A DNA stretch of 64,000 nucleotides from NCBI GenBank assembly GCA_043806035.1, contig JAZDHK010000033.1:1-64000 (forward strand), read 5' to 3'. This DNA comes from an archaeon. Its GTDB lineage: Archaea > Nanobdellota > Nanobdellia > Woesearchaeales > UBA9642. Shown one piece after another: positions 26,101-54,422 of this stretch; position 1 is the stretch's first letter, and each line of letters starts with the position of its first letter. The notes beneath the pieces were generated by a model. The model did no database searches and was not told the origin of the DNA. It worked only from the letters and a program-made list of their open reading frames with translations. The translations under genes and the position numbers were made by a program.

Positions 26101-26142
26101 TGTCAAAATTGGCACAACGGCGGCAGCTGTTACCAATACTAA
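23119..26142 (+). CDS. Large surface protein with class III (pilin-like) N-terminus, PKD/Ig-like middle and Cys-rich C-terminus
   Basis: MKG|QLTIFVILGIVL..; GYDPDE..LTY.Y, LNGSGS Ig/PKD motifs; dense Cys in last ~390 aa; no C-terminal TM. Confidence 0.75.
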   Translation: MKGQLTIFVILGIVLFVAFTFLFFARATVVSLSANTQQKQAYADLIETSPIRYRIYSCLDAVTNEGVYWLGLQGGVLYDFQDGNTTFDPTGQGTQWLRYNASGTLGYEYDAAHVAYGLKEQLDSGCVYIGPPDYPYPHRYAISPLPTMYSGYQDWIALGFCSDVNLAGGPLGQNVLQKLCSPTGPNRYQVSADSTRTCWNILNGTPNVQEELAGYMQKQLKGCVNFSEYANISQHNITVVDNPNITITYGVDGFAIDVTYPFVVYIHGREPIVSFAKFSRQYPVRLKEMFQKITTIIGRDARSVLFNLSDIPGSYSGWPADYVVYRAMNVCTDPLCGVYYYDDIIQIIDTASLVKGKPFLFQFAVQDRPPVLDYLHNIAAGGFDIAIAENQTLIIDPRGYDPDEGVLTYNYSGWKETEDAYFNFTGCMADMTNCINDPSLYVVTVPFAPYNLSYSFWYVTTGRNASYVTNSSDTGLHFVTITVTKERGLQDWQNVSILVYDLPLATLNGMNNYSDLTGGKELWGSLEDVYILNGSGSRGSLLHNTSRVNFIWNDTTWPWGVIGVFEYQLVPDGLYDISSIRPLPFNQIGTHTMSLQINDTTGILSAPAYWDVDVKECLPHRNPSQSSYPYGSGSDFFRNHTCCTDVGTYAGSSVNCYGKSYWSCNPSTLCGSVFNEIPPAQLAIGVDPFDGTIIPATAITVPRVADPGECNDIYYRTYQQNCSDNRGNVCGGAVLDRWIKSVDCQSVLTASGDYCVGPCNPLDSHCHSPACQNTGFNEATYGHSCFNYSPGQTFKTNFITPPAVNGVCNTNWACSKDTSIIMNSGHYVGTSPGTYADTGGAWSNYSCRATCDGVGGCTFAYNCTRCIDTWGGVAHCIWNTDHYDYFGEYSACNPTDPSGPCTGTQLLQWPSCDPWWCCTASAGCYDECSATPYHEDCIVRDACFSPGCDYNWVSGSCGYDYTHGYMVMEGAALGGACSSVPGREGLCCNSTNYCCQNWHNGGSCYQY

Positions 26143-41100: not shown

Positions 41101-42099
41101 AACAACAACACGTACCTGTTCAGTGTCACGTGCAAACGCCAACATCAGCTCACGACATTCCAAGAACGAATAATCACCACAACAGACACCACAACCTTCA
41201 TCCACATCGACAACCCAAGTAACGGAGAAGTCTTCAACGACAGCATCATCACCATCGACGGCAGCGCAGAAACACCAGGAACAATTAACGTGAGTGTGCA
41301 GAACAGCAACGGCCTCACCAGATATCCTGCCTTCGCGAGCGAAGGTGCATTCGTGCAGGACATAAGCTTAGTGCGAGGACAAAACACCATCCGCGCACGC
41401 ATTACGGACAGGGCAGGCAATGTTGCAGAGCATGCAATCAACGTCACCTTAGACTTGCTCGGTCCTGAAGTCAGCATAGCCGTAGGTCTCAACGGCAATT
41501 CGCCTGACGAGCACCACACGAGCTTCAGCGGGCAGTACTTGTCCAGCATCCTGCTCAGCATGGAATCAGTGGACCTCCGCTTCAACATCAGTCTTACAGA
41601 AATCAATCTCTCCGATCAAGGACAAGTTCCCTTCACACGAACGTACGGCCTAGGCACGATTACCTTAACTATAGACCCGACGAGATACCTGGGCAATTAC
41701 ACCCTGCGCATCAAAACGTTCGGCAACGATAGCACCATAGGCAGCAGCAAGATCGTCTTCCTCACGATAGACCCGGACATACCAAGCATAACCCTCTCTA
41801 GCCCGCATGATGGCTACGTCAACAATGCCAGCGTACGCTTCTCCGGAAGCATACAGCCCATGGCACAACTGCTCCAGTATGCCGTCTATAATGAGACGGG
41901 AGGAATACGCAGCGGCATCTTGCCTTTCGCGGACAACCTCAACACGACGTTCAACTACGTTGTCAACAACGCACTTACAGAGGGAAGGAACGATTATTAT
42001 GTTACGGCAGTCCTCAATGGACGTTCGAGCAATCCGACGGGCGGCACACTCTACCTGGTCACCAGCCCGCCCAGCATACAAAACGTGACCATAGGCTGA
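26200..42099 (+). CDS. Giant (5299 aa) secreted surface protein/adhesin: Cys-rich N-terminus + many Ig-like domains
   Basis: Sec signal ..LPSAFA|; Cys-rich first ~490 aa; recurrent DxxPP and D.AGN Ig motifs; abundant NxS/T; TATA-like TTTAAAT 26158-26164. Confidence 0.85.
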   Translation: MVERRLLIIALLLGFVLLPSAFAEWGCCCEGAGSGDYVPSAADCAGSFIPDSAFGHAMDADSCYGFCNPSPLSCAVDGTIDYVNGEQCEPPALGTMPCQTFSPQYTAGQLFCFDNCQFNTSNCTQCSSDYCFNSTHLVHCSSVSLEECQSGSCVAGACTSPSCGYTPGTCVPGQPYMYDGSACGHTFFNCTCNTTRCSAGCNAVTGLCNPVSGVTCTLFEGGNMLIYFVGEHACQDNHYLTCQDGGGYGVWDNITCDPSEYCSVTGCQLLSGCTDGEIQCLSGPSYLNCSSNTWFPMNCDPEYVCSSGACINRTLVCTPEECTPNEFSMTCIDNDTYAANTCNMNASGCGEWNNGYGSCSASGQYCNMTTNTCETPPLPPGNPCTDSCLAIGFGCRSDGNLYECMNVTTSAYGPGWCLNWTLNQTCSGGSVCNASAQACTFSSDCPAGARVCADAYTEQICTWNASMSAYRWQSNPCMPSFVCIAGVCAENFSFSGFLFDATNAWLDGQVIVQQGFTQWIFPTVAGRYITLPLIPALYYNLTAKSTGYRPNMTCALLDQTKEINFTLQPLQTIRVFGRVNDTNGNNLSGVNVSTEHFWNLSVNGDYSVLAYEGDFLFTAFHPNYALHQHQFSTLVDQEWNVTLTETSCFWFQKRTPQLMASVVQGQRRVDLFWTNPCNGYKFTLYKSNGSCTNLRPYIQNLTTLSFQDRDIEGGMSYCYAVAVFHDAINGPQTISPPAYVSAMDEHCLNGISSFCSEDRTQLFNCTSTNNATDITAVSHGNATLDRVICLDGNSTSPAKFTYKANCTTCGGLFNMFNYPLSISYRGLVFFSIDEDNDTNRTCSQIPICYAAPTPTVKDAYDSCENVHSCYDYASEAACISDNTSCRVAQAAAQKGCAWQQLQGFSTLGKGVCSPVDESLQDCSQCNNQYFGCSQETCAAYGSCYYNAHRYSMYDAAPIRTCMNKRDVACEWYDLEECAPSQNYSMNHTTHARLTFSNDSLGLGLCALVTEPNPDDPVLNVTSCVKDANNDDSHDCEIGDVSCMLDFNPPITNFSYPSRISDDFFSLNWSTIDEEGHQATTYICFNETTCTPQTTITAHPYQLTADKFNVPGNYTFFYYAEDTAHNLEVVKNFTLFVDKYVNMNVTNFRTYIFDAVADEWKTTLAINFSNPDNELVLCWANLTRQDNHLLIDSDLVINMSEGKEWLQTFENLPDATYLYTWKCYDTVANVNSGVQTLRLAANASIYDEDPVGRILNTTSVTIAAHTHEDGMCRYNESFMPYASMSSSFDPATYVAADNYLHAKTITLPANAAYTYYIQCNLTDGYGNYRIFGKDTNYVWFSIDTQAPITALVDNNGDGIDDQIDHWMPYRGFRLNCLDPAIPAPGEFGCENISYCLGYFCSPTPVTTDELPLTNDVIPYVQYLKYYSTDAGGNGEPQSMTLLSFDNLTPDFTLSLNAFYVTRGLNIITNQTSVVITPDAIDYLFSQATFGQLGTINLPLTNFTITGKLRVLPNTNEMILTFRANAASNYSLKIFNNGTPNRIIFFKDGSHLEHIDHVLPLNTELPFVFDAKGDTFNFSVDNVYLNVTDTTYALGSLKRTASQVQFSDLLVKTTHEYTSGVDSTTITPQTRTLSLGPQALSFTVADFAGNERTKSFNVTLDTQPPSIQITSMRDGMNANVLSTGNAEVGTFFIVNFTINDTNYTGSEQNINLSILNGSGVIFTDSFAEQNAYSERFNFTDLNNSGNSINLSIGTYTLRLEAEDPFGHAAVLDHQFVINDTIPPAFTLSINATRNLSVASHPYMLLRNKQYQLDITASENVNDLQAVLLFVDDGEPRLLDVNGSGMYYTAVIDSRTFRGKNNKAGNITVAAIDLTGNLGSAHVNVTAATLGKSQPSIFIPNVSEKYTRGVETIYGYAPTTNNPEGNLGIRGFLTSNTSLSVDQFFTEAFTDWTWTGNTTSAPPITSSITAYTSSTFDAADNIIPLQNCDGLTAVESNPSDYYVDIEDSTHAFYRISALDCSAFLLSLNRTLETIPGRNSILNLSTFEHPKGWYALSFNISDAPDGRYKLFVVANDSDGLGDNFTSKHFILDTTSPVISINDFFNNTASSTPLLAINMSLADRWAIDLDVTSVTLNKTRDGISNVTTRNCTSGLLCRQRYAYTENESWVFWNLSTLPETHGIGRYAITVFAKDKAGNEQTATFNYVTDDTLPGQPLINISHGMNPWNTGYGRVWTRSATPTIYLDFEEPIQNISITDILLNGVSILDDLESMDARHTKYALDNSTLLANTDNVLNITARKTNGSGTWGPEGQVFALLTEDEQQPWFVLSDVYMNTCTPACIGTLRGNYSEPNFFNLEITGNISAPYYTETPPAQPFIITLELNESDALIYASMRDRAGNLAYLERQGQYDNESPELELLEVISRPDGYAFADNNFTWRVKRLQGNTPIRVNVTIRGRIVSTDYQYVNLRSTDSTPVLNVNITPDINGFFSYDLPQELIPITGRENNYTYNLSIYDLAGNVLLIPLRIVYDLSPPLITVQYPAGHPARPYDIFSNEPQPMFSLLTDEGTLCNLTYYPQDSLLLWTDSIEGYGSTHQQRPSYQIDLVHNAFNVTCADLVGNTANAPYHFFFDNEGPRIRAITLTTPTSNYDVFQDENHVQFYVFNRTDTIINFSMMNSTGQDEPYTYCKYDQDDVPYEQMALDANYVYGFSESRRATNLLSLTSNETHYIACADFLNNTLQQPYTNYRVDLFSSPTAPLIWNVKVDNKTAGYIRHLTPKLEVFASRFLTSCTYTQYVGTELPLQRDPTHNGVYDLLDTDNNRIFDDILDLQNGFIYRFDISCQGAGSETASITVMTDNSTFITITDPENGEVFNDPLRTITVVTEPDSNVTVLVNNTNPRSEFTTTPTLILQNVLLRYNGSNNISARTLDHAENTAQDSTLVVYNMSGPSVNISLAINDNQFSNQELWMVNDTYNLTMNFQSSNPLFDITRTRLVFENATHAPVVFTNTTIGNRMLLTPAAPFVLVNDYTLAVVAYDQYGVAGSTAFFTILIRPVPKIVATSPQDGIIVYDTEQNFSGTFTPYAEQAYLRINNRTIISSNPAFQLTSTTYTYASALCQDIIPGLNTWTVFAALNETWANTSGSLTLQQSLPPNVTLFSTQENVFVDDNTFRTNQTQVNISINISDDDNGWYVIENATHRMASGNFSTLPETHTFTLTGLTNGASRHLNITAQDKTCNVRAIAVTVVNDNQAPLINITEPFYYNNQLFASTVTPAFVIDTDESASCTVMYTHSGAYGEPYILYLGNVSGHHHELLPDQQYFSIDVNSNVNITCKDVFGNSRTVTPWPTFRFDNTPPAISDFTISSSTDRFLMTSQSNYERTFYVLDNSTRLKLIMNEGYTSCKYSTVSEPYAEMDVDFDNTPWSGYTRYSPFINLSTTLQDYYVSCEDPSQNAITPPYLYHLAHQDAFRLIVGVRMNANLNDTFINQLHPTLYLDRSTTDTSCSYRQYMFNNSAWQDLTVGPAVGFNGNGYTVSHAVDMLSNNTYLFNITCQRFLEVDRAAFIIHTDTNTYVNITDPANNVVSRDPSINITVQHENDSRLIVFVNNTEQYNQTTNDMVQTAVPILLPGNGSSPVKARIIDHATNTAEHTITLVYNMTGPLAALTLFAVNDAPYGSNVEQLTSAEIQLDSLETPSRINLANTAITVFNTMNQPVNFTRSMPLVPGNTVRIQLDNAATLPGDYRLNVVARDAFNASGSTASFIIAVRNAANILSENPPAVITEANALFNGTLTPYADRFELHVLRPTRGWQNVTIFTAPATTYAYTASCSLLEQGLNEYTLYAVLNGTASWLERTVELQPSGVPNLSVDVTSSVGVVSKENATTFRTNASAVNLSLTFSDDDGGTYRVNGTNLNVQGQFNESYTILHQFTLAMQAGQDRLYPYDINVNDRSCNELLTMVTVIRDDKAPIIGVRSPFLDSGRLYAASRNAVINVSTDEQATCQLTYTSESGAVLPGEFASADNRTHTFYGVFLNNTPVVINCTDVFGHVGRTTPQILTFIVDDVPPSILEWDVINPNSRYLRNSTNSTDFVKDFIIYRGNGTDIRVKVDDRNATCKYDLSTTTFENMQYTLEEYDVHNTPPYYVQFRIGSQLNFTEGEVKTLHVSCADPAGNVMDQRINAGETSFYYDHFTYRMNYTSTIGLFLGLYINNKENNSYINNLNAQLRAITFDALRCRYTYFIDNAGWQELGEDIMSRVNYTHTATIALENNKTYRFDVYCDQTSLEPETKSITIMTDNYTFIHIDTPRSGEFTDPALLLQGTSEPGNLTITLTTPDDQRTYELQTTGSFTQPITLFGEPDGFSQNTITAHIRDRADNTASDTVMVSFNWSGPLTDARVGINGQEPIPITDTTVRQLRNITIALDTVDARLDLERTNVSFRDATHNIPFTRTNLPDAIFLSFSPPRVDIGSYDLDIIPRANDGSAGLPHHIIVRIHPNATIITVENPAEDHTTTASVLFNGTLEPYANRTYIAFTTSHDITTSNRMTTFSYTSNCQDLVHGWNDYIITACIEEFCTPLQGSMYLEERMPTINLTAVLPASNVYYDPANDVWRTNLARVNLSGTVVDDDGSTFLIWNGSRYIYNTTYTTQHEFFVQANLTTGVNREVANNFTFLAFDQSSCTPTTLLATVLYDSAPPHITFNYPVLHPDRSGHANQIYAREDSPVFDISTNEPARCNLTYTMAFTGGISNTISCDGDFSTTHSCITSPIEQNTQTVITSCVDVFGNTNTTPAMRFFVDNIPPNITWGITTPNYTLQVQDQARNYTLYYSNLTQLNITTQAADYASCVYSNETTQYEFMLPMYNQTPLERRSAVLALIENVSQHWYISCRDFVGNTINDAFREYYITFNPNALYEISLTIDGKGNNSFINNLTPTLRAGAADMEWCKYTGQRWTGSGWVDTHPLTSMTVYQGGANATTPLLENNNTYLFSVTCKRQHQLTTFQERIITTTDTTTFIHIDNPSNGEVFNDSIITIDGSAETPGTINVSVQNSNGLTRYPAFASEGAFVQDISLVRGQNTIRARITDRAGNVAEHAINVTLDLLGPEVSIAVGLNGNSPDEHHTSFSGQYLSSILLSMESVDLRFNISLTEINLSDQGQVPFTRTYGLGTITLTIDPTRYLGNYTLRIKTFGNDSTIGSSKIVFLTIDPDIPSITLSSPHDGYVNNASVRFSGSIQPMAQLLQYAVYNETGGIRSGILPFADNLNTTFNYVVNNALTEGRNDYYVTAVLNGRSSNPTGGTLYLVTSPPSIQNVTIG
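33400..42099 (+). repeat. Four tandem ~715-aa protein super-repeats in the giant ORF
   Basis: PLITVQYP/PLINITEP/PIIGVRSP/PHITFNYP at ~33784, 35932, 38071, 40243; TD..T[FY][IV].I..P at ~34747, 36874, 39049, 41182. Confidence 0.85.
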
Positions 42100-42110: not shown

Positions 42111-45100
42111 ATGAAACATGCACTGTTCGTGCTAGTGCTGCTAGTCATCCCGCTCGCTCTCGCTGTCGATGTGCTACCAGGTAATCTCGTGACGAACAAC
42201 GTCCAACCCACCATACACATCTTCTTCGACAAGAACACATCTGTTACCAACGCATCATTATGGAATGTTTCTGGACGCATGCCCGATACGTTCTTCTCCT
42301 ACGACCATGCCGTGAATGACACGACCCATTGGTATTTCAGCATAGAGCAGCCGTTGGCACACGGCAATTACAGCCTGCGATTCAACGCCACGGATGCACT
42401 CAACAATTCTGACCCGAACAAGAGAGTTTATTTCTTCATCGACCTCATCAAGCCGAACATCACCGCACTCACCATGTATCCCTGGAGAAACGATTACTTG
42501 AACGTCAGCAACCAAACTATAACTGTAACGACGATGGATAACCTTCCCGGCGTGCGCCTTATCGATGTCGTGCTGCGCAGGCAATCGACGACAACGAACA
42601 TCACTGCGCAGTTCAGGCAGATTACGTCCTGGGTATTTCAGGGCAATGCATCCATTCCTGATGGGAATTATACGCTGCTCGTGAACATCAGTGATGCTGG
42701 GGGCAATCGCGCAGACAGGAATCTTTCCTTCCTCATGAACGCAGAACCATTTCGCGTATTCTACGTTGCCCCTCCCTTCGGCTACACGGCAATAAACCCG
42801 TTTAATCTCACGCTGGGCACGAACAAGCAAGCCACCTGTTATTACAGCAAGAACAGGAACACGCCTTTCGGCAGCATGCTGCCCTTCACGGAGAGCGACG
42901 GCTTCAATCACCTCATTGCGAGCTTCCTGCTCGATGCAGCAATACAGAATATCACCGTCCAATGCATGATCCAAGAGGGAGGACTGAGTGACAGATTCAG
43001 CATCGAATTAGGGTATGATGCGACACTGCCGAACATACAGGACATGAGCGTGCATCCCAACAACGGGCAACCCGTTATTAACGAGGACCTTGACAATGCC
43101 TATCTTCGCGTACTAACTGATGATACGGCGCGATGCAAGTACAGTTTCAGCACGGATAACTATACGGATATGCTTCCGTTCGAAAATTTTTCCCAAGGAA
43201 TATTTGACGTATCAAACGCTCATTTCTTCAATGGGGAGATCGAGAATGGCAACAATTACACGGTCTTTGTACGCTGCGAGAATCGCGCAGGACTAATCAG
43301 CAGCGCACGCACCTTGCCGTTCAGTGTAGACTTGCAGGCAGCGGCAACGATAACCATCATTAGTCCATTGGCATACGTGCACAATCCCAATATTGTGTTC
43401 AACATCACTACGACAGAAGCCACCACGTGCACGTATGACGGCAGGCCATTCGAGCATGGAGGAGGCACAAGAAATCTCTATACGGATCCCACGTGGTATG
43501 AGGACGGCAGCCACTCCGTCGTCATCGCATGCGAATTCCAGCAAGGCCTGCAAACCAAGAACGTGACGTTCATCGTCGATACCGTGCAGCCCAGCCAAGC
43601 CGTCATTGCCGTGGACAACATCAGCTGCAATCCCGAACGCATCACGGCAAGCTTCTCTGCCAACGACACGAACGGCATTCTCGGATACAATTACACCGTC
43701 AGTGGCCCAGGAGGTGTTGTCAAGGAATGGACATTCGGCAGCAGTGGAGAGTATAGCGGAGACTTGCAGGAGGGTGCCACGTACACGTGGAGGGCATACG
43801 CCATCGACCGTGCAGGCAATGCAGGTCCTGAAGCCGCGCCCAAGAGTACGCGTGTGCTCAGTCCAGACAGCCTCTCGTGTGACGATACCTCTCCGCAGAT
43901 TTCCTTCGATGCAGACACGGATCAAAATCAGATACGCATAATGGTTGATTGTTATGACAGCGATAGTGGCTGTGTCGACACGTTCTGGTATGATCTCAAG
44001 CTGTCCAGCAGCACCGCCTGCACATACACACGCTTGAGAAACATCAGCCAACCCGTGCTGCTCAATGATTCTGCAAAATTCTGTGCATTAGTGAAAGACA
44101 AGGCAGGAAACAATGCGACAAAGAGCGAATTCTTCTCCCTGCACATCAACGCAACGCACTGCAATAATTCGGAGAAGGATGGCGACGAATCCGACACGGA
44201 CTGCGGCGGCAGCTGCTTGCCCTGCACGAAAGGGAAGCACTGCACGGACACGCAAGACTGCCTCGCCACGTTGTTTTGTGCCGCAAACAGCATATGCCAG
44301 CAACCAACATGCAATGACACCATCAAGAATGGCCAAGAGTCAGATGTGGACTGCAGCGGTGATTGTCCTCCTTGTGCGCTCAACAAGACGTGCACAGTAG
44401 CGGTAGACTGCGAAAGCGGCTACTGTGCCAGCGGCAAGTGCAGCGTCGCCTCCTGCAACGACGGTGTGCAGAACGGCAATGAGTCAGACATTGATTGCGG
44501 CGGCCAATGCGTAAAGTGCGAGCTCAACAACCGTTGCGTGGTAGATGCTGACTGCATGTCCGGATTGTGCAAGCTGAGTTTCTGCACGAAGAAGATAGAC
44601 GAGCAGGAGGTTCTGCCTCCCGAAGAGGCAAGCCACACGGCATCCATCGTGCTGCTCATCATCGGAGGACTGCTCATGCTCGGCGGTGCAGGATATCTGG
44701 TGTATGTCACCAAATTCGCATCACCGCCAGCCACCCCTCCTGCCATGCAGCAGAAACCACCGCAACGACCCGTGCTGCAGCAATCGAAAGGCCGTTTTCA
44801 TTTCAAGAAGAGACCATCACTGCTGCCAACGCACTTCGCGCCAGCCCCGGAGAAGAAGCCGGTGCAGGAAGAGTATGTGGATGTTCGTGATTTGCAGACG
44901 AAGTCTGAAGAGAAAAGCGATGCCTTTAAAGAACTGGAAAAAGTGAGTTCTGATGTCAAGGATCCTTTCGCGGCATTGTCCAAAATAGGAGACAAGGCAA
45001 TAGCGAATCTTGCGACAAAACGCCAGCTGGATACACAAGACATCGTCACGCTTGTCGAACATGCAGGGCAAGGACAGCAGCAGCTCACCGAGACCGTGCT

Positions 45101-45227
45101 GAAAAAACTCCTCTCAACCAATGCAATAACCAAGAAAGAGATCAGCGATGCGCTCTTCGAGCTTATGGACCAGCAGAAAATACGCTCGGACGATGCGCAG
45201 AAATTCATGAGCGATCTCGACATCTAG
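42111..45227 (+). CDS. Membrane-anchored Ig-like/Cys-rich surface protein with cytoplasmic tail
   Basis: Signal peptide; Ig domains like those in the giant; 3x C..G.ES D.DC.G.C..C repeats; TM IVLLIIGGLLMLGGAGYLVYV; Pro-rich/charged tail; GAGGTGA SD. Confidence 0.85.
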   Translation: MKHALFVLVLLVIPLALAVDVLPGNLVTNNVQPTIHIFFDKNTSVTNASLWNVSGRMPDTFFSYDHAVNDTTHWYFSIEQPLAHGNYSLRFNATDALNNSDPNKRVYFFIDLIKPNITALTMYPWRNDYLNVSNQTITVTTMDNLPGVRLIDVVLRRQSTTTNITAQFRQITSWVFQGNASIPDGNYTLLVNISDAGGNRADRNLSFLMNAEPFRVFYVAPPFGYTAINPFNLTLGTNKQATCYYSKNRNTPFGSMLPFTESDGFNHLIASFLLDAAIQNITVQCMIQEGGLSDRFSIELGYDATLPNIQDMSVHPNNGQPVINEDLDNAYLRVLTDDTARCKYSFSTDNYTDMLPFENFSQGIFDVSNAHFFNGEIENGNNYTVFVRCENRAGLISSARTLPFSVDLQAAATITIISPLAYVHNPNIVFNITTTEATTCTYDGRPFEHGGGTRNLYTDPTWYEDGSHSVVIACEFQQGLQTKNVTFIVDTVQPSQAVIAVDNISCNPERITASFSANDTNGILGYNYTVSGPGGVVKEWTFGSSGEYSGDLQEGATYTWRAYAIDRAGNAGPEAAPKSTRVLSPDSLSCDDTSPQISFDADTDQNQIRIMVDCYDSDSGCVDTFWYDLKLSSSTACTYTRLRNISQPVLLNDSAKFCALVKDKAGNNATKSEFFSLHINATHCNNSEKDGDESDTDCGGSCLPCTKGKHCTDTQDCLATLFCAANSICQQPTCNDTIKNGQESDVDCSGDCPPCALNKTCTVAVDCESGYCASGKCSVASCNDGVQNGNESDIDCGGQCVKCELNNRCVVDADCMSGLCKLSFCTKKIDEQEVLPPEEASHTASIVLLIIGGLLMLGGAGYLVYVTKFASPPATPPAMQQKPPQRPVLQQSKGRFHFKKRPSLLPTHFAPAPEKKPVQEEYVDVRDLQTKSEEKSDAFKELEKVSSDVKDPFAALSKIGDKAIANLATKRQLDTQDIVTLVEHAGQGQQQLTETVLKKLLSTNAITKKEISDALFELMDQQKIRSDDAQKFMSDLDI

Positions 45228-46583: not shown

Positions 46584-47093
46584 ATGAACGCGCAAGTGCA
46601 AAGCCAGATTTTCATTTACATCCTTGTTATAGTAGTTGTCGGTTTGCTGCTCCTGCTCGGCTACAAAGCCATCGGAAACTTGCGTAATGATGCGTGCAAG
46701 GTCAACGAGGTTAGCCTGAAAGCAGAGCTCGAGACTGCAGTCCAGGATAACAGCGCGTACAAGGCGTCTGACGTGAGAACATTCCAGGCGGGCTGTGCAG
46801 GCAGTGTGCTCTGCTTTGCTGACGCTGCTCTGGTAGAGGGCACGGGGGGCGTTGATTTTCCCTTGCAGCTCGGCAGGCCCGCAACGTATTTTTTTTACGT
46901 CAATGACAGCATGAATGCGCACGTGCTAAGAAATGTGTTCATCCTGGACAATGAAGGCACGATGAACGAGCGGGCAATATTCATTCCTCGCGTCGAGGTG
47001 GAGCAGAACCTCACCTGCATCGAGGCAGTGCAGGGACTGTTCAAGGTGCGTTTTGAGGGCACGGGCAAGGGAACGAAGGTTTTCCCTGGGTGA
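46584..47093 (+). CDS. Class III signal (pilin-like) protein
   Basis: MNA|QVQSQIFIYILVIVVVGLLLLLG + small globular domain. Confidence 0.7.
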   Translation: MNAQVQSQIFIYILVIVVVGLLLLLGYKAIGNLRNDACKVNEVSLKAELETAVQDNSAYKASDVRTFQAGCAGSVLCFADAALVEGTGGVDFPLQLGRPATYFFYVNDSMNAHVLRNVFILDNEGTMNERAIFIPRVEVEQNLTCIEAVQGLFKVRFEGTGKGTKVFPG

Positions 47094-47096
47094 AGT

Positions 47097-48143
47097 ATGC
47101 AAAGAGGTGTGTTTGAGATCCAGTTCAACTGGATCTTCGTCATCATAGCAGGAGGCGTCATCCTCTTCTTTTTCCTGTCATTGATTAGCAAGCAGAAGGC
47201 GACGAGCGACGAGTCCATCAACCAGGACGTGCTGCGCAGGCTCGACACCATCCTCATCAGCACCGAGCAAGGCTATCAGACGTACAAGGAATTGCATCTT
47301 GTCAAGACACAACTGACGTTCACATGCGAGGATACGTCTCCATCGCTGACGACGCAAGGCATCATCAGCAATTTGCAGATAGGCAGCTTCTCTGTTGACA
47401 CACCGACGCAGATACTCTTCACGCCACCCTCGCTCAATACGGACACGTTCCAATTATGGACGGACACATGGGACCAGCCGTTCCGCGTTTTGCCCTTTCT
47501 CTACGTGACCGCCCCAGAAGTGTCCTTTTACATCGTCGAAACCACTCCGCCAGATCGTTCGCAGGAAATCTATGAATTACTGCCCGCAAATGTGAGCAAG
47601 AAACTCATCACTGCTGCAGACATCAATTACTTGCCGAACAAGAACGACCAATACAGTGTGGTCATTTTTCTCGATGCAGCAGTCAATCTCGCAGATCCTC
47701 TGTATACTCCTTCGCAGCTGAAAGGTGACGTACGGGCAGTCAAGGTGGAATCTACTGGGGATGCTGGTGAGGTGACGTTTTACAAGAAATCGTTTGTGGG
47801 GAATTTTTTCGAAAACGGGACGCTGCCTTTCATAGGCAACGAGATGCTCCTCGGGTCGATAGTGGCTGCGGACGCGCAGGCATACGCGTGCAATGTCAAG
47901 AAGGCGCTCGTGCGCTACAAGACCATTACTGAATTGCACCTTGCCCGGGTAATAAACCTGTCTGGCATGACCGATCCTACCTGCATAGGACCGTTGACCG
48001 CAGGACGAAGGACGCTCGAGTCCATGAACACAACGCTCAATTTCACAACGTCAGCGTTCCAGATGCTTGATTTATGCAGTACAGATTTGCAGACGAGCAA
48101 TGAAGATCTCGTGAGAGGAAGACGATGCCCACTCATCTACTGA
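47097..48143 (+). CDS. Class III signal (pilin-like) protein
   Basis: MQRG|VFEIQFNWIFVIIAGGVILFFF. Confidence 0.72.
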   Translation: MQRGVFEIQFNWIFVIIAGGVILFFFLSLISKQKATSDESINQDVLRRLDTILISTEQGYQTYKELHLVKTQLTFTCEDTSPSLTTQGIISNLQIGSFSVDTPTQILFTPPSLNTDTFQLWTDTWDQPFRVLPFLYVTAPEVSFYIVETTPPDRSQEIYELLPANVSKKLITAADINYLPNKNDQYSVVIFLDAAVNLADPLYTPSQLKGDVRAVKVESTGDAGEVTFYKKSFVGNFFENGTLPFIGNEMLLGSIVAADAQAYACNVKKALVRYKTITELHLARVINLSGMTDPTCIGPLTAGRRTLESMNTTLNFTTSAFQMLDLCSTDLQTSNEDLVRGRRCPLIY

Positions 48144-48607
48144 AGAAAGGACAATTGCAAATGCTCGAAAGCATAGGTGTCATCATCATCATAACCTTCC
48201 TCATCTTCTTCAGCTTCAGCATCTACCAACGATTCCATGCCAGCGAGATAGCCAGGAAAAATCAGCAGCAGAACCAGCTTTCTGCCATCGATGTTGCAAA
48301 TAGGATAGGGGAACTGCCAGAACTGCAGTGCAGCCACGTCGATGTTGTTACTGTAGGCTGTTTTGACCTGGTGAAAGTGCAAACCTTCGCAGCATTCGCA
48401 ACGTCTCCAGCATTCAGGCTCATGTACTATCCCCTCTTGAGGGAGAGCAGCATTACCGTCTACGAGACGTATCCTTCCCCACACAACTTCACCATCTACG
48501 AGCAGAATGCCACGAACACCAGCATACCATTCTTCATGCCTATAACTATCTACCACCCGCAAGAGCGAACGTATGGCTTCGGCTACATCGAGGTGCTCAA
48601 GGAATGA
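48125..48607 (+). CDS. Class III signal (pilin-like) protein
   Basis: KKG|QLQMLESIGVIIIITFL; LPELQCS. Confidence 0.72.
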   Translation: MPTHLLKKGQLQMLESIGVIIIITFLIFFSFSIYQRFHASEIARKNQQQNQLSAIDVANRIGELPELQCSHVDVVTVGCFDLVKVQTFAAFATSPAFRLMYYPLLRESSITVYETYPSPHNFTIYEQNATNTSIPFFMPITIYHPQERTYGFGYIEVLKE

Positions 48608-49089
48608 AAGCACAGATGGAAATCATGGGGTTAGCTGTCATCGTCGTCCTCATTGCCCTGGGCATTTTCATCTTCATCGGATTGTCGGCACGGTTCGGCG
48701 AGGTCAACCAGATTGTGAAACCCGAAGCGTACAATGACGAGCGTCTAGCGACGACGTACGTTGATGCGCTCCTTCGAACATCCGTCCCTAGCTGTCATGC
48801 CTTGCATGTCGATGAACTGCTTCGCGACTGCGCCTTGAATAACAGGACGTGCGGTGCTTTGGGTAGTTGTGAGCTCGTGCAACTCGTCATCGAAAATGTC
48901 ACCAACGCCACGCTGGACGTGTGGGGGAAGAACTATTCCTTGAACGTCACGTATCCGTTGGGCACGAAAGGGATAAGCTTCAGCAAAGGACCTCCTTGCG
49001 TGCGAAGGTATGGTGTGGAGCCGTACACGGTGAGACTTCATCCGTTTCCGGGAGATGTGCTTGTAGAATTGTCCCTCTGCAAAAAATGA
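48604..49089 (+). CDS. Class III signal (pilin-like) protein
   Basis: MKA|QMEIMGLAVIVVLIALG; ATGA overlap with the upstream gene. Confidence 0.75.
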   Translation: MKAQMEIMGLAVIVVLIALGIFIFIGLSARFGEVNQIVKPEAYNDERLATTYVDALLRTSVPSCHALHVDELLRDCALNNRTCGALGSCELVQLVIENVTNATLDVWGKNYSLNVTYPLGTKGISFSKGPPCVRRYGVEPYTVRLHPFPGDVLVELSLCKK

Positions 49090-49235: not shown

Positions 49236-50162
49236 ATGGAAACTAAACCTTTGGCAACGGTTATTATGGCAGTCATCATAGCCGTGCTACTCTTAGGGAT
49301 GCTTGCATACTCTATCGCTACTATCAAGAAGTTTGAGGACAGGGACAAGTGCAGGCTCACCTCGTGGGCGCAGGCGAACAGCCAATACCAGCCAGGCATT
49401 GCAGGCATCATTCCAGGACCAAAGTTCGATTTAGGATTACGCCAAGACTGCCCAACCTATTACGTGACGTTCACCAAGGACAAGGTCACGGAGAGGAAAA
49501 GCAACAGCGACGACACGGAAGTGCTCAGCGTCTATGACAGCACACGGGGGAAACTGGTACAAAAGTACAAGCAGCTCACACCAGACATGGTCAACAGCGT
49601 CGTCGCAGAACAAATGCGTTACTGCTACTACCAGTTCTGGGAAGGCAAAGTGCCTGTCTTTTACAACAAGTATACGGACATCAATGTTTTATCAACGATT
49701 GCATTCGGTGTTGTTGGTGTTGCACTGACCCATGCGAACAACGTCCGCTGCTTTCCCTGTGCGGAATTGCACTTCAGCGACAGTGTTGATTATGACTCAA
49801 ACAAAGGCAGTGGTCTGTCCGTGCAAAACCTTCCAGAAACACAACTCCCCCCTTCTGAAAATACGGCAAGCATAGGCTATTATTTGGTCAACAGGAAAGG
49901 CAAGAACATGAACAGCACGTATTTTGATTATTTGAACAGCTACAACGGCTACTGCCAACTTACGACGGGCAAGCAGGGAAGCTGCCTGGCTGAAGAGCTC
50001 AATGACATGGACATAGATCCCTATCTCGTGCTGGAAAAAGACAAGTACTACAAAGTCTTGCTTATCAGGAGGGGAGAGGAACGGGACGAGTACACCATAA
50101 CATCGTATGTTGTCCCTGCTGATCGGGAAGCAAAGATATGCACGGAGGGCATGGTGTCATGA
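49236..50162 (+). CDS. N-anchored Cys-containing surface protein, paralog of 50159
   Basis: N-terminal TM; C..., CPT, AEQMRYCYYQFWEG, CFPC pattern. Confidence 0.75.
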   Translation: METKPLATVIMAVIIAVLLLGMLAYSIATIKKFEDRDKCRLTSWAQANSQYQPGIAGIIPGPKFDLGLRQDCPTYYVTFTKDKVTERKSNSDDTEVLSVYDSTRGKLVQKYKQLTPDMVNSVVAEQMRYCYYQFWEGKVPVFYNKYTDINVLSTIAFGVVGVALTHANNVRCFPCAELHFSDSVDYDSNKGSGLSVQNLPETQLPPSENTASIGYYLVNRKGKNMNSTYFDYLNSYNGYCQLTTGKQGSCLAEELNDMDIDPYLVLEKDKYYKVLLIRRGEERDEYTITSYVVPADREAKICTEGMVS

Positions 50163-51043
50163 AGGCACAAATAAGCAGTCTCTTGCTCGTCACCATTGTC
50201 ACGATACTGACCTTGCTCGTCGTGCTGCTCGTCATGTCCGGCATATTCTCGAGCACGAATGATGCCTTTGCGTACAAGGACTGCCAGGCGAGCGTGGAAA
50301 AATTCATCGCCCGCACAAAATTGACGAAAGATTACACGACGGCGAGCATCACGTGCAGGACGAGAACGGTGAATGTACGCGCCACTGATCAGGAACAGGT
50401 GAAACGGCAACTTGCGGAGGAAATGCGCAGCTGCTGGTCAACATTCAAACAAGGTAATGTACGGTTCTTCGTTGAAGAGGGCACGTACTGCCACCCCTGT
50501 GCTATTGTCAATTTTAATAAGAGAATGAAACCGATTACTGATTTCAATGCGTACTTGGCGCAAAGGAAGATGACGAGCAGCAACCTCACGTATGCGGCTT
50601 ATTTTATAGGTTACAGCACGCCTGGAGGACAGGAATTAGCAGTCTTCACAGATAATGCAAGTTTTGGAAATGCTCTTCTCCTTGATCCGCAGAAGCATTA
50701 TGTCGTGCTGTTCCACCACATGATGGGCATGGAAACCATACGACAATTCAAAGAAAGAATAGGCGGTGAGACGAACGCAGTATTTTTAGGCATTGGAGCG
50801 GGGGGTGCCGCTGCTGGAGTTGTGGGTATTATTCTTGTTACTGCAGGAGTTGTTTCTGGACCCATAGGCTGGATCATCTTGGGCGCAGGCATGGTCATAG
50901 GGGGGGTGATTGCAGACATTTGGGGAGACCCTCCAGAATGGGTGAGCAGCATCATGCTTATAGAATACAAGCCGGGAGAACTCGAGAGGCTCGGCTGCCA
51001 ATTTGATGAAGTGCAGCAGGACATGTTCGGCAACCTAAACTAA
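50159..51043 (+). CDS. Pilin-like protein with internal Gly-zipper hydrophobic hairpin
   Basis: MKA|QISSLLLV; AEEMRSCW..F..G, CHPC; GIGAGGAAAGVVG...GPIGWIILGAG. Confidence 0.75.
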   Translation: MKAQISSLLLVTIVTILTLLVVLLVMSGIFSSTNDAFAYKDCQASVEKFIARTKLTKDYTTASITCRTRTVNVRATDQEQVKRQLAEEMRSCWSTFKQGNVRFFVEEGTYCHPCAIVNFNKRMKPITDFNAYLAQRKMTSSNLTYAAYFIGYSTPGGQELAVFTDNASFGNALLLDPQKHYVVLFHHMMGMETIRQFKERIGGETNAVFLGIGAGGAAAGVVGIILVTAGVVSGPIGWIILGAGMVIGGVIADIWGDPPEWVSSIMLIEYKPGELERLGCQFDEVQQDMFGNLN

Positions 51044-51077: not shown

Positions 51078-51215
51078 ATGCATGGCCAGAAAAGCACTTT
51101 GAAGGAGATGATCGTTCTTGCAGCGGTGATTATCATTTTCATCATCATTTTGTCGTTTTTATTCAAGGACAAGGTTTCCAACCTGGTCGATAGCATCATT
51201 TCCGTATTCCACTAA
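51078..51215 (+). CDS. 45-aa micro-pilin-like peptide (not in ORF track)
   Basis: MHG|QKSTLKEMIVLAAVIIIFIIILSFLF...; TTTATAAA 51047-51054; stop 2 nt before the next ATG. Confidence 0.6.
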   Translation: MHGQKSTLKEMIVLAAVIIIFIIILSFLFKDKVSNLVDSIISVFH

Positions 51216-51217
51216 CT

Positions 51218-52015
51218 ATGAAAGGACAACTCAACAAGCAACTGTTGGGCTTCATCATGCTAGCCATTGCAATCATCATGGCATACTTGTTGCTCACGCA
51301 CGGCAGAGACTATGCATTCAAGATGCAATACTGGCTCTTCGGACCACCATCCGACGATGATGATCGTGCACACTACTATTTTGATCGCATGGCAGAATTC
51401 CTCGAGAGCTCCGCAGTGACGGACGATTTCTCGAAAAAATTGCCAACAGAGGTACCTTGCCTGCTTTCACGGTATGCGTACGATGAGGACAAGCCGCTCT
51501 CGAGCAAGTACTTCTTCAGCGTCGACTATGAAGGGCCTGCAGACAACCAGCAGGGCAACAAGGCATACGTCTTGCACATGCACGTGCAAACGCCATCAGG
51601 CTTCATTGATAATGCCTCAAAAAGACTGGGCGTGCAGACGTTCAGGTATAGGTGCTCTGCAATCGAGCCAAAAGTGAACAGACCTCCCGTCATGCTCGCG
51701 CAGGACGCATTCCTTTGTGGAGTGAACCCCCCTGCACGGTACATACTTCTCCCGGACCAGCACGTTGCAGGTATGCCGTTCCTGCAGGACTACGCCCAAA
51801 TAAACAAGACCACGAACACGTACTACTTTTCCCGCTACCCTTCATTGTACATCTTTGCAGACACGGCAAACCCTGTTGAAGAGGACAAATACCGATCCTA
51901 CTTTTACGTCTTCGACCCCGCAGACAGCATGTACAAGGCAAGCTCGACTCGAGACAGCATACTGCGCAGCCTGCAAGAGATTCCCTCCTGCACGTTCAAG
52001 AAGCGGAAGACGTGA
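51218..52015 (+). CDS. Class III signal (pilin-like) protein
   Basis: MKG|QLNKQLLGFIMLAIAII. Confidence 0.7.
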   Translation: MKGQLNKQLLGFIMLAIAIIMAYLLLTHGRDYAFKMQYWLFGPPSDDDDRAHYYFDRMAEFLESSAVTDDFSKKLPTEVPCLLSRYAYDEDKPLSSKYFFSVDYEGPADNQQGNKAYVLHMHVQTPSGFIDNASKRLGVQTFRYRCSAIEPKVNRPPVMLAQDAFLCGVNPPARYILLPDQHVAGMPFLQDYAQINKTTNTYYFSRYPSLYIFADTANPVEEDKYRSYFYVFDPADSMYKASSTRDSILRSLQEIPSCTFKKRKT

Positions 52016-52089
52016 CTGCGGCCGCAGCATCCGAAACCTTTAAATAGTGAAAGAGCGGCTGTATTTCTAAAAGTTTCGAGGTGACGGTT

Positions 52090-52344
52090 ATGAAGAAAGG
52101 TGTGGAACTTTCTATGAATGTCATCATCATTGCAGCAATAGCACTCGTTGTTTTGGTGATATTGGTGGTGCTTGTCCTAAACAGCGCAGGGCCTGTGGCG
52201 GACACGAACAAGTGTGGCGCGGGGCAAGGCATGTGCATCGGAGAAGGCGATGAGTGTGGTGACGGCTACATCGTGCAGCCGTTGAGCAACTGCCCGACAG
52301 CAACGCCGAAATGCTGCGTACCCTTTGGCGGCGAGCAGCAATAA
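52090..52344 (+). CDS. Small pilin-like protein with beta-defensin-like 6-Cys domain
   Basis: MKKG|VELSMNVIIIAAIALVVL; C-x6-C-x6-C-x11-C-x6-CC; GAGGTGA SD; TTTAAATA 52039-52046. Confidence 0.8.
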   Translation: MKKGVELSMNVIIIAAIALVVLVILVVLVLNSAGPVADTNKCGAGQGMCIGEGDECGDGYIVQPLSNCPTATPKCCVPFGGEQQ

Positions 52345-52354
52345 AGGTGCAAGC

Positions 52355-52591
52355 ATGAGAAGAGGTGTGGAACTTTCTCTTAATTTTATCATTATTGCGG
52401 TCATCGTGCTCGTCATCCTGCTCATAGCCATCGTTCTCGTCATCAATGGCGGCACGAGCTTCAATAGGGACACGAAGACCTGCACGTCAAGAGGAGGACA
52501 GTGCATTCCGGGAGGGGACAGTTGCCCTTCTGGCTCGATACCTGTTCCTGGCGTAGAGGGATGTGACGGCAGCTGCTGCCTCGGGGCATAG
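52355..52591 (+). CDS. Small pilin-like protein with beta-defensin-like 6-Cys domain (paralog)
   Basis: MRRG|VELSLNFIIIAVIVLV; CTSRGGQC...C...C...CC. Confidence 0.8.
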   Translation: MRRGVELSLNFIIIAVIVLVILLIAIVLVINGGTSFNRDTKTCTSRGGQCIPGGDSCPSGSIPVPGVEGCDGSCCLGA

Positions 52592-52594
52592 CTC

Positions 52595-52731
52595 ATGAGG
52601 AGTACAGAGCTGGCGATGAACAGCATCGTCACCATGGCCGTTGCTGCCTGTCTCTGTTGTTCATCTACTCAGGTGATGGTTCAATTAACGAATGCTGCAT
52701 ATCAGGTGAGAGTTGTTGCATAGACATATGA
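52595..52731 (+). pseudogene. Degenerate third pilin-defensin copy
   Basis: MRSTELAMNSIVTMAVAA, then in a shifted frame LLFIYSG...ECCISGESCCIDI*, whose stop overlaps the next ATG (ATGA). Confidence 0.6.
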
Positions 52732-54422
52732 AGAAAGGCATGGCTGCCCTGGAGTTTGTCGGCTACTTGCTGCTGATGCTCGTGGTCATTCTAGTAGCGA
52801 TGTATCTCATCAATGGAGGAATAAGCATGTTTGGCATGGCTACCGGCTGTGAAGGGCAGAACGGCGTGTGCAAGGAATCCTGTGGTGAGAATGAACGAAC
52901 GGTCATTTTCTTCAAGGGCTGTCCCCCGTCTGATGACAGGGCAGATAAGGAGAAGAAGCACTGCTGCGCCCCGCAAAAAGAAGATCAGGAAGGAGGCAGC
53001 GAGAGTGATGCGAAGTGCAAGAACCAAAATAATGGGTACGCCTGCGGCAATGGCACGCTCAGATACGGCAATAGAAACATTCCCTTCGTTTCCATGGTGT
53101 GCTTAGACCAGAAATGCGTGCCTCGCTGCGACTTTTGTGCAAGAGTCCTGGGCAGCGATACTGTTTGCAATCCGCTGCCAGGCGTGAATCAAGAAGTCAC
53201 GTTCACTGATGCTTTCTCGTGCAGAGCCATGGAAAGTCCTCTGGATTGTGATGCACTCAACCTGCATGGTGACTGCATCAGAGGCTTCTGCCCGGGTGAC
53301 ACGTACTGTGCAAAACGAGACGGCAATGGAGCGAGAGATGGTGAATTGTACATCCGCTATTCCGACCAGCCAGAATACTGTGCGGGAGACTGCGCCTTGC
53401 CTGGCACAATCGTGATCGTCGGTGACCCATTACGCCTCACCGTCAGTTACTCTGGACCGGACAGGAAGCTCTGCGCGGTAGATGTACTCAGAGAGGATGG
53501 GCAAGCCAACAAATTCGTCAGGCAGTTCACACCAGCATGCAGGAACGTTTCCTTAGATAATGGTCCATGCTCATTCAGGTGGGTGTTTGAATGCGGAGGA
53601 GATGCACCTGCATTCGTGCTCGAGAATGACCCATTGCAGTTTCTAGTGAACAGTTCAGAATATGAATTGTTGAAGAATGTGCCCTTGCGTATCGATGTCA
53701 TCGCCTATAATTGTGACGTCAGCGATAAGCAGGGCAACGTCCAGACGAGTCCTTGCCAGGACAAGGGAAGAAACGAATTAGCCCACGCCCGCATTTCTCT
53801 CGACTTAATGAAGCCGTCATCTGCAGAGCTGCGCAAAAGAAATCCCATAATCACCATAGCATCATCCAATCCATCGACGAAATCCTGCATTGTTACCTGC
53901 AAGAACTCATTGGGGGAGCAGTGTGGGCCGCTGAACTACCTGGGTGTGGGTGCAGGAGAGCAGTGTGGGGAGAACTTGAACTGGGAGGGAAATTTGCCCA
54001 CACTAGCCTACAACAAGTGGAACGAACAGCCAATAGACAGAACAGCAAACCCTGTATTGTGCTTCAGAGGCAGGCTCACGAGCAACCCGCTCTTCGTTAA
54101 TTACACGACAGACCCTAACGGGTGTGAGCGGTTCTTCTACCAGAAAGTAGCGGAGGAGCAAGTGTGCCTGTGGAACAGCTGTGCACAAATTTCTGATGCT
54201 GCACAATGTGAAGACACGCTCAGCCAAGGCTGCAGCTTCAGCTGTATTTGGGATAATGTGAAAAAGACGTGCCGGCTGTGCAGCACGCCCGAAACCCAAT
54301 GCAAGTACATCAGAGACAGGGCTGCCTGTGATGCTGCAGCAGAAAAGTGCGGCATGCAATGCCACTGGCGGCGACGATTCCTGTTCCTGCCTGACACGTG
54401 CGAGCCGGGGCCGAGACCATGA
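52728..54422 (+). CDS. Pilin-like Cys-rich multidomain protein
   Basis: MKKG|MAALEFVGYLLL; CEGQNGVC..SC...C...CC defensin-like module; further Cys-rich modules. Confidence 0.75.
   Translation: MKKGMAALEFVGYLLLMLVVILVAMYLINGGISMFGMATGCEGQNGVCKESCGENERTVIFFKGCPPSDDRADKEKKHCCAPQKEDQEGGSESDAKCKNQNNGYACGNGTLRYGNRNIPFVSMVCLDQKCVPRCDFCARVLGSDTVCNPLPGVNQEVTFTDAFSCRAMESPLDCDALNLHGDCIRGFCPGDTYCAKRDGNGARDGELYIRYSDQPEYCAGDCALPGTIVIVGDPLRLTVSYSGPDRKLCAVDVLREDGQANKFVRQFTPACRNVSLDNGPCSFRWVFECGGDAPAFVLENDPLQFLVNSSEYELLKNVPLRIDVIAYNCDVSDKQGNVQTSPCQDKGRNELAHARISLDLMKPSSAELRKRNPIITIASSNPSTKSCIVTCKNSLGEQCGPLNYLGVGAGEQCGENLNWEGNLPTLAYNKWNEQPIDRTANPVLCFRGRLTSNPLFVNYTTDPNGCERFFYQKVAEEQVCLWNSCAQISDAAQCEDTLSQGCSFSCIWDNVKKTCRLCSTPETQCKYIRDRAACDAAAEKCGMQCHWRRRFLFLPDTCEPGPRP

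Follow-up and report, generated by a model that had tools for sequence, protein, structure and literature searches.

A pilin-like protein family of the Nanobdellota with a predicted glycine-zipper hairpin built into its head

The gene and its product

The window analysed here is a stretch of 64,000 nucleotides (positions 1 to 64,000 of contig JAZDHK010000033.1, assembly GCA_043806035.1) from an archaeon of the Woesearchaeales, phylum Nanobdellota; the assembly measures 1.5 Mb and is 93.7% complete. The gene content of the window is archaeal and of the DPANN type, with genes for a Hef helicase-nuclease, a block of archaeal ribosomal proteins, SecY, an EMC3-like insertase and RNA polymerase subunit N. 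A gene on the plus strand, at 50159-51043, is the subject of this report. It encodes a type IV pilin-like protein in which a cysteine-rich head is interrupted by a long, uncharged, glycine-rich segment. The anatomy of this segment, its conservation, its helical glycine periodicity and its operon context are directly established. With about even confidence, we propose that the segment forms a two-helix hairpin in the cell's own membrane, which would make the protein a three-span, membrane-retained component of a pilus.

An earlier, sequence-only reading of the window had drawn attention to a segment of some 46 residues at 50777..50915. The 46-residue string is matched exactly in the translation of the open reading frame (ORF) 50138-51043 (plus strand) and is 28% glycine; its end, however, lies one base earlier, as the in-frame coordinates are 50777-50914, corresponding to residues 207-252. 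The probable start codon is the ATG at 50159, which overlaps the stop (TGA) of the upstream ORF 49236-50162 as ATGA. In view of this overlap, 50159 is taken as the start, giving a protein of 294 amino acids followed by a stop. Together with the two preceding residues (TN), the run that is free of Asp, Glu, Lys and Arg extends to 48 residues with 27% glycine. The mean Kyte-Doolittle value of the 46 residues is 1.98, and both arms of the putative hairpin pass 1.6 on this scale in windows of 19 residues. In predicted structures the segment follows the last helix of the head and precedes its last beta-strand, and linkers of only about 3 and about 8 residues join it to the head. The gene and its parts are as follows.

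50159-51043, plus strand: gene for the hairpin-bearing pilin-like protein (translation, homologue search, full-length profile match)
50159-50248, plus strand: class III-type signal M-K-A/Q-I-S-S, with predicted cleavage before Q, then a strongly hydrophobic helix at about residues 8-30 (N-terminal sequence, comparison with Epd sites)
50249-50776, plus strand: first part of the head, residues 31-206 (alignment, AlphaFold2)
50777-50854, plus strand: putative hairpin arm 1, residues 207-232, Gly/Ala-rich and uncharged, with Gly211 and Gly220 near-invariant in the family (alignment)
50855-50872, plus strand: putative turn S-G-P-I-G-W, residues 233-238; family consensus S-N-P-V-G-W (alignment)
50864-50914, plus strand: putative hairpin arm 2, residues 236-252; in most homologues this arm has about 5 residues more (alignment)
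50915-51040, plus strand: acidic conserved tail, residues 253-294, rejoining the head (alignment, AlphaFold2)

An unnamed family across the phylum

An exhaustive HMMER search of 1.84 billion representative sequences yielded 844 proteins at E <= 1e-3, with 377 at E <= 1e-10 and 24 at E <= 1e-30. The best 150 of the 844 matches are mostly 270-340 amino acids long and are aligned end to end. An alignment of 129 sequences was drawn from these 150, the other 21 being left out as truncated, matching in two stretches or matching in part. The profile derived from it matches 38 of the 41 genomes among the closest relatives and, at E <= 1e-5, 232 of 301 high-quality genomes sampled across the Nanobdellota/Woesearchaeota, including genomes of 0.5-0.7 Mb. 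In the ESM Atlas, too, the nearest clusters are archaeal and most often belong to Nanobdellota/Candidatus Woesearchaeota.

None of these proteins seems to have been named. Ten family clusters that were looked up carry either no name or the label 'hypothetical protein'. Scans of the target against Pfam and NCBIfam, in which 16 neighbouring proteins were also included, gave nothing for the target, and at E 10 Pfam returned nothing beyond noise (PALP, XS and DUF7519). A word-indexed homologue search with the single protein retrieved only the target itself, and with the 129-row alignment only three proteins; the index was probably overwhelmed by low-complexity words. The literature searched describes neither the family nor a pilin with an internal hairpin; the supplementary tables S3-S5 of PMC13705601 on DPANN components, which lay outside these searches, might list the gene under an arCOG. 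On sequence grounds, the family thus appears to be large, uncharacterised, unnamed and phylum-wide.

Four cysteines (Cys42, Cys66, Cys111 and Cys280) are invariant in the alignment, and Cys92, Trp93, Gly99, Phe104, Cys114, Gly211 and Gly220 are conserved to at least 90%. Two of the six conserved cysteines form a Cys111-x-x-Cys114 motif (Y-C-H-P-C, window 50489-50500), with Cys172-x-x-Cys175 as its equivalent in the paralogue encoded by the upstream gene (C-F-x-C in the paralogue family). Such a C-x-x-C pair might bind a metal or be redox-active instead of forming a plain disulfide. As a separate observation, several orthologue matches contain one in-frame stop codon (TAA, TAG or TGA), for example G035:C1:10165-11046, G039:C1:74509-75357 and G045:C71:1243-2136; these stops may reflect overhanging matches, errors, broken genes or recoding. 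Another orthologue, G015:C17:23007-23996, consists of two overlapping matches (profile positions 1-251 and 209-291) that split inside the hairpin region, which may reflect a frameshift in a low-complexity stretch.

Predicted fold of the head

The structure was predicted in two AlphaFold2 runs, one with all 129 sequences and one with 34 sequences that share the SNPxGW turn. The two models agree, with a mean predicted local distance difference test score (pLDDT) of 76.9 and 76.3, respectively. Both predict a single helix that spans residues 2-55 or 2-56, strands at 69-73, 108-119 and 180-189, and a helix at 191-203. Accordingly, residues 31-206 hold the rest of the long helix, these three strands and the second helix, along with the conserved Cys42, Cys66, Cys92 and Cys111-x-x-Cys114. 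After the hairpin, the conserved tail, which carries the motif P-E-W-x-S-x3-L-x-E-Y-x4-L-x2-L-G-C, contributes a further strand at 261-269 that is confident in both runs (pLDDT about 90), and the invariant Cys280. The stretch in between is unmodelled in both runs (residues 205-254 or 210-253, pLDDT below 50, coil at about 30), and is no better in the 34-sequence run. The models thus display the hairpin neither buried nor exposed; it makes no confident contact with the head and probably lies outside the soluble fold. The chain quits a folded, cysteine-rich and presumably extracellular head, makes a hydrophobic excursion and returns to finish the head. The earlier description of the segment as an insertion in an otherwise soluble extracellular domain is thus borne out by the strand and the cysteine that follow it.

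An archaeosortase-type C-terminal sorting signal was considered as well and ruled out: the hairpin is internal, and the conserved tail of 42 residues rejoins the head.

The predicted secondary structure, a helix at 2-55 and four strands, would fit a pilin, but no solved pilin is found among the structural matches. A Foldseek comparison of the head with the Protein Data Bank (PDB) had a best E of 1.5, and VIA-align, run over 48,161 chains, reached a Z of at most 3.8, again with no solved pilin. The predicted head therefore has no fold recognisable to Foldseek or VIA-align, which does not make the fold new. A complex prediction for the target with the product of the upstream gene, 49236-50162, gave no verdict (score 0.00, mark 0.32).

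Conservation and physical features of the hairpin

Conservation in homologues had been proposed as a check on the hairpin, and the segment is indeed kept. Among the 129 homologues the uncharged run has a median length of 49 residues (range 19-75) and measures at least 35 in 113; its median content is 24% glycine and 57% Gly, Ala, Ser and Thr combined. Eleven orthologues were also recovered from more distant genomes of the same class, and nine of them keep an uncharged, glycine-rich stretch of 32-56 residues followed by a Cys-containing tail. A central proline is present in 83 of the 129 inserts, within the consensus S-N-P-V-G-W, and it divides the run into arms with median lengths of 27 and 22 residues, which would fit a bilayer. 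The turn abounds in the turn-formers Ser, Asn, Pro and Gly. What is conserved in the hairpin is thus its length, its composition and its turn motif, and not its sequence, which drifts.

The glycines are spaced as in a helix. Compared with composition-preserving shuffles, Gly-Gly pairs are enriched at i+4 (z 3.3), i+7 (z 6.3) and i+8 (z 4.7) and depleted at i+2 (z -4.0) and i+3 (z -8.5). GxxxG motifs number 363 where 310 are expected (z 4.2), and three-step zippers 664 where 578 are expected (z 3.8); all these z-values are overstated, the sequences being related. Such a periodicity reads as the signature of helices with a glycine face, and not of strands or random coil. When the sequences are aligned on the proline of the turn, Trp and Tyr peak at +3 to +5 (18%) and again at +15 to +23 (8-13%), as two interfacial belts would give. 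Large aliphatic residues occupy 30-50% of the hairpin positions. Charged residues make up only 116 of the 6675 residues in the hairpin cores of the 129 sequences. Those in the middle third lean to the basic side (16 Lys and Arg versus 6 Asp and Glu), which agrees with the positive-inside rule if the turn is cytoplasmic, and the 12 residues that follow arm 2 are strongly acidic (240 Asp and Glu versus 51 Lys and Arg). These features suggest a conserved glycine-zipper-like hairpin: two antiparallel helices of about 27 and about 22 residues, connected by an S-N-P-x-G-W turn and placed in the loop that leads into the last beta-strand of the head.

One might also take the segment for a flexible, low-complexity loop at the cell surface, rich in Gly and Ala and located outside any membrane, for example a spacer or a hydrophobic, sticky patch for adhesion to a surface or to the surface layer. 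The coil that AlphaFold2 returns in two runs, the preponderance of small residues in the run and the free drift of the sequence are all in keeping with such a loop. The near-exclusion of charge over about 50 residues in 129 diverged sequences is not, nor are the helical glycine periodicity with its depletion at i+2 and i+3 and the conserved proline turn at the midpoint with its flanking aromatic peaks. The abundance of large aliphatic residues, like the traits of charge, glycine and turn, is typical of membrane helices, not of disordered linkers, and we judge a loop of this kind very improbable.

The N-terminus and the pilus machinery

The target begins with M-K-A-Q-I-S-S, followed by 23 hydrophobic residues, which is an N-terminus of class III (prepilin) type. 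Leaders in the family typically read M-x(0-8)-[KR]-[KR]-[GAS], then Q, I, M, E or the like, then about 22 hydrophobic residues. The strict class III pattern occurs in 86 of the 129 homologues; the rest are mostly near-misses (KKGN, KKAS) or truncated gene starts. The K-A-Q-I of the target and the KGQL, KAQM and NAQV of neighbouring genes resemble the sites RAQI, KGQV, KGQL and KGQI that Table 1 of PMC4371748 gives for the EppA-processed Epd pilins of Methanococcus maripaludis.

A gene for a prepilin peptidase (Peptidase_A24) is found on contig 13 of the same genome, and a T2SSE ATPase gene with two adjacent T2SSF platform genes on contig 28; none of these lies in the window. In the account of PMC13705601 (section 11), system 1 (Epd-like) has two platform genes next to the secretion ATPase; the same paper describes the pilins of Nanobdellati as scattered away from the ATPase/platform pair. 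In this genome, too, the secretion ATPase adjoins two platform genes in the arrangement given there, and the pilin genes are set apart from them. The target thus shares with the Epd-type (system 1) pilins EpdA-E of M. maripaludis a short basic leader ending in [KR]-[GA], with Q at the cleavage site, a hydrophobic N-terminal helix, and clustering with other class III-type genes. It differs from them in that no described pilin family matches it in sequence or fold, and in the predicted two-helix hydrophobic hairpin inside its head, for which the literature searched offers no counterpart among pilins. Considering the leader, the long N-terminal helix and the machinery elsewhere in the genome, its earlier characterisation as pilin-like holds, and the protein is best described as type IV pilin-like with a predicted class III-type leader.

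Residence of the hairpin

During export, the chain would be threaded through SecY beside the cell's own membrane. With an uncharged stretch of about 50 residues and linkers of only about 3 and 8 residues, an out-in-out hairpin in that same membrane is therefore the simplest arrangement. The most likely course is the following. The protein would be inserted through SecY with its N-terminus inside, and the head would be exported and oxidised. The uncharged stretch of 46-52 residues would then partition into the cell's own membrane as an out-in-out hairpin, after which the acidic tail would return and complete the head. The glycine faces may allow close packing within the hairpin and perhaps with neighbouring helices, either those of other protomers or the N-terminal helices of pilins. 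A protein with three spans would be hard to pull from the membrane and should therefore stay at the base of the pilus, as a membrane-retained base, anchor or assembly factor and not as a subunit of the shaft. It may fulfil this role jointly with its hairpin-less paralogue.

The energetic cost of insertion was estimated with central-position values of the Hessa et al. 2005 scale, summed without position weighting, and is thus only a rough guide. On this approximate scale the N-terminal helix is strongly favourable (-4.0 for the family and -5.7 for the target). Arm 1 of the target has a best 19-residue window of about +0.7 kcal/mol, and arm 2 a 17-residue window of about 0 kcal/mol. SlyB of E. 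coli served as the control for a glycine-rich hairpin, because no c-subunit of an F/A-ATPase was found in the genome: a search for the ATP synthase c/K subunit (PF00137) found none in the 93.7%-complete assembly, and the same search found one in 14 of 14 control genomes. The arms of SlyB are shorter, with 40% glycine, and less hydrophobic (+4.4), from which it follows that marginal scores do not speak against residence in a membrane.

Several observations weigh against a hairpin in the cell's own membrane. The best 19-mers of the two arms are only marginal, with family medians of about +2.2 and +2.3 kcal/mol, and integration by the translocon is therefore not assured. AlphaFold2 modelled no helices in the hairpin with either alignment. 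In two of the eleven more distant orthologues, both from the smallest genomes (about 0.5 Mb), the best match is hairpin-less. Most turns have no basic residue at all, and the lean to the basic side comes from 22 charged residues in sequences that are related. Finally, the N-terminus resembles that of a true pilin and looks cleavable, and a second anchor would hinder the exit of such a subunit from the membrane.

In another explanation, the subunit is extracted into the pilus and the hairpin packs among the N-terminal helices of the pilins, or carries lipid as conjugative pilins do, and thereby stabilises the tip or the base of the fibre. The class III-type leader and pilin-like architecture suggest incorporation of this sort, the glycine faces favour tight packing between helices, and marginal hydrophobicity would make extraction affordable. 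We nevertheless consider it improbable: no type IV pilin with an extra helical hairpin is on record in the literature searched, and the poorly conserved sequence of the hairpin fits contact with lipid better than a specific protein interface. A constitutive anchor in the cell's own membrane, which the sequence-only reading had itself named as an outcome contrary to its proposal, is the most likely of the readings that we infer.

Genomic neighbourhood

The target gene is the sixth of a series of class III-type genes on the same strand that often overlap (starting at 46584, 47097, 48125, 48604, 49236 and 50159). The surrounding features are listed here in order of position.

23119-26142, plus strand: 1007-aa protein with a class III-type N-terminus (MKGQL and a hydrophobic helix); no match among the Pfam models scanned
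26200-42099, plus strand: ORF of 5299 aa with a Sec-type signal and a Cys-rich start; no match among the Pfam models scanned
42111-45227, plus strand: large surface protein of 1038 aa with a Sec signal and Big_13 Ig-like domains, first gene of the conserved block (Pfam, synteny)
46584-49089, plus strand: four consecutive class III-type (minor-pilin-like) genes, 46584-47093, 47097-48143, 48125-48607 and 48604-49089, syntenic with the target in relatives (N-termini, synteny)
49236-50162, plus strand: hairpin-less paralogue of 308 aa with the same six conserved Cys positions (BLASTP, profile, alignment)
51078-51215, plus strand: mini membrane protein of 45 aa (MHGQKS..., one hydrophobic helix), an unlisted ORF (sequence)
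51218-52015, plus strand: class III-type protein of 265 aa (MKGQL...) (sequence)
52081-52344 and 52325-52591, plus strand: two small class III-type proteins, each about 87 aa long and Cys-rich in its C-terminal half; relatives have 1-4 copies close to the target gene
52713-54422, plus strand: extremely Cys-rich class III-type protein of 569 aa, whose N-terminal region is common with the proteins of about 87 aa (sequence)

Synteny was examined in 20-kb regions from eight relatives. The block made up of the Big_13 protein, the counterparts of the four genes at 46584, 47097, 48125 and 48604, the target and the small pilins recurs in seven of the eight; the match to the target is strong in six of those seven and weak in the remaining one (L022, E 7.7e-4). 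The eighth relative has only the target, one small pilin and the mini protein. The two proteins of about 87 aa (52081-52591) are candidate major pilins. A weak homologue of the 45-aa protein occurs near the target orthologue in one relative (L024 8078-8203, E 1.5e-4). Judging from gene order, the target gene is part of a conserved pilus-like operon, and its family would be a near-universal, unnamed component of an Epd-like pilus/adhesin operon in the Nanobdellota.

The gene directly upstream encodes a paralogue that is real but distant (BLASTP E 2e-5, 24% identity). It shares the final strand and cysteine with the target and has a short loop at the place of the hairpin. A hairpin-less paralogue (profile positions about 1-190) immediately precedes the full-length gene in 27 of the 29 genomes whose match is near full length; of the remaining two, one has the gene at a contig edge and the other has no second match. 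The sequence-only reading had pointed to an apolar insert in the paralogue as well. The stretch VLSTIAFGVVGVAL is present, but 11 of 11 orthologues from relatives have a gap of 12 columns there; it is a private insertion, not a feature of the family, and adds nothing to the case. In one relative the hairpin-less paralogue A (L011 596-1441, plus strand) has a short hydrophobic insert with a G-N-P centre at the hairpin loop, which therefore looks like a hot spot for such insertions.

Type IV filament machines contain paired bitopic accessory proteins, such as PilN/PilO, GspL/GspM and ArlF/ArlG of the archaellum. The target and its paralogue are reminiscent of these pairs: the genes are adjacent and paralogous, each product has an N-terminal membrane helix and a small alpha/beta extracytoplasmic domain, and they are situated in a filament operon. 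They differ in that no homology is detected, one of the partners has an extra hairpin and the leaders look cleavable; a heterodimer is conjecture.

Some observations concern the wider window. Together with the pilin block, the ORFs of 1007 and 5299 aa form a surface-protein island of about 32 kb. At 6514-7887 (plus strand) there is a single ORF of 457 aa with weak Pfam matches to both DNA_primase_S and DNA_primase_lrg, which suggests a fused primase. A search of sequencing runs gave two DNA holders, both from one biofilm-metagenome study, and no RNA holder.

Relation to known membrane-inserting hairpins

The glycine zipper 2TM proteins (PF05433, PF13488 and PF13441), with the outer-membrane lipoprotein SlyB as an example, resemble the target in having two short, glycine-rich and uncharged helices, a tight turn and a folded extracytoplasmic domain, and the hairpins of the target family have the small-xxx-small periodicity of these proteins. 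The three models do not match the target even at E 10, and among the 129 members only three have a weak match, one each to PF13441 (5e-4), PF05433 (1.3e-3) and PF13488 (6.4e-3). The target family would thus work like a glycine-zipper hairpin without being a member of the Pfam glycine zipper families. Compared with SlyB, its arms are longer and more hydrophobic (46 versus about 25+20 residues, with 28% versus 40% glycine). Moreover, it has no lipobox and is predicted to be an archaeal cytoplasmic-membrane protein with an additional N-terminal helix. SlyB and YfgH are presented as glycine-zipper lipoproteins of the cell's own membrane in bioRxiv 10.64898/2026.06.08.730324 and 10.64898/2025.12.22.696046.

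The sequence-only reading had looked in another direction, to alpha-pore-forming toxins and secretion translocators. The alpha-pore-forming toxins SmhB/AhlB and the glycine-zipper ends of LXG proteins of the type VII secretion system (EsxX, LXG-T2) do have in common with the target an uncharged stretch of about 45-50 residues, rich in Gly, Ala, Val and Ile and capable of forming a hairpin. The best match of the family profile among all PDB sequences is the hydrophobic head of SmhB, at a sub-threshold E of 0.049, compositional in nature and limited to the hydrophobic stretch. The next matches, equally sub-threshold (E 0.11-0.8) and again within the hydrophobic stretch, fall on the membrane-proximal/transmembrane region of herpesvirus gB, with an S-N-P-F-G turn. 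These matches indicate the kind of sequence and not relatedness. The target also differs from the pore-formers and LXG proteins in lacking a soluble scaffold of the LXG or ClyA type as well as any fold match, and in that its hairpin is part of a protein predicted to be membrane-anchored already by its N-terminus. Kinship to toxins or translocators is therefore not upheld.

Even so, the protein might be displayed at the surface or at the pilus tip, and its hairpin might insert in the membrane of a host archaeon, as an anchor, a pore or a fusion loop of a bridge between symbiont and host. Arms that are only marginally hydrophobic (about +2.2 against -4.0 for the N-terminal helix) are what conditionally inserting segments have, and the sub-threshold matches just mentioned fall on membrane-inserting elements. 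Secreted glycine-zipper toxins offer a precedent, EsxX (PMC12744356) and LXG-T2 (PMC12955049) being described there as toxins of the type VII secretion system with membrane-depolarising ends. The gene is, besides, part of a conserved adhesin/pilus block, and in this phylum of presumed episymbionts it is retained by 232 of 301 sampled genomes, down to those of 0.5-0.7 Mb. On the other side, neither in sequence nor in fold is there significant similarity to a pore-former, a translocator or a fusogen, and the unmodelled hairpin (pLDDT below 50) gives nothing to suggest a shielded soluble state as in water-soluble alpha-pore-formers. An exposed, greasy loop of 46 residues that leaves SecY would be expected to enter the cell's own membrane first, and it is tied to the head by linkers of only about 3 and 8 residues. 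The aromatic belts and the arm lengths point to a fully spanning hairpin, not to a shallow fusion loop. The proposed pore or bridge at the pilus tip finds no support in any test; none of the results locates the hairpin at a tip or in the membrane of a host, and we regard insertion in a host as unlikely. More doubtful still is a specific form of it, in which a hairpin held loosely in the symbiont's own membrane or in the head is delivered to the host membrane on contact, where several copies, packed by their glycine zippers, open a pore or help the membranes to fuse locally.

Concluding remarks

What is new here is a pilin-like protein with a built-in, predicted glycine-zipper membrane hairpin. 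An attached lifestyle on other cells is assumed for DPANN archaea, and hardly any of the proteins that mediate the contact have been described. About three quarters of the genomes sampled in the phylum, half-megabase genomes included, retain the family described in this report, which is nameless in every library searched. Should the hairpin reside in the cell's own membrane, as we favour, the protein would represent a new kind of pilus base or anchor and a first hint of how such filaments are fixed in the archaeal membrane. If it is directed to a partner instead, it would be a device that touches the partner's membrane, and a hairpin delivered on contact would give the cytoplasmic bridges that join DPANN cells to their hosts the protein basis now missing. 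The family provides a concrete handle for cryo-electron tomography and proteomics in DPANN co-cultures.

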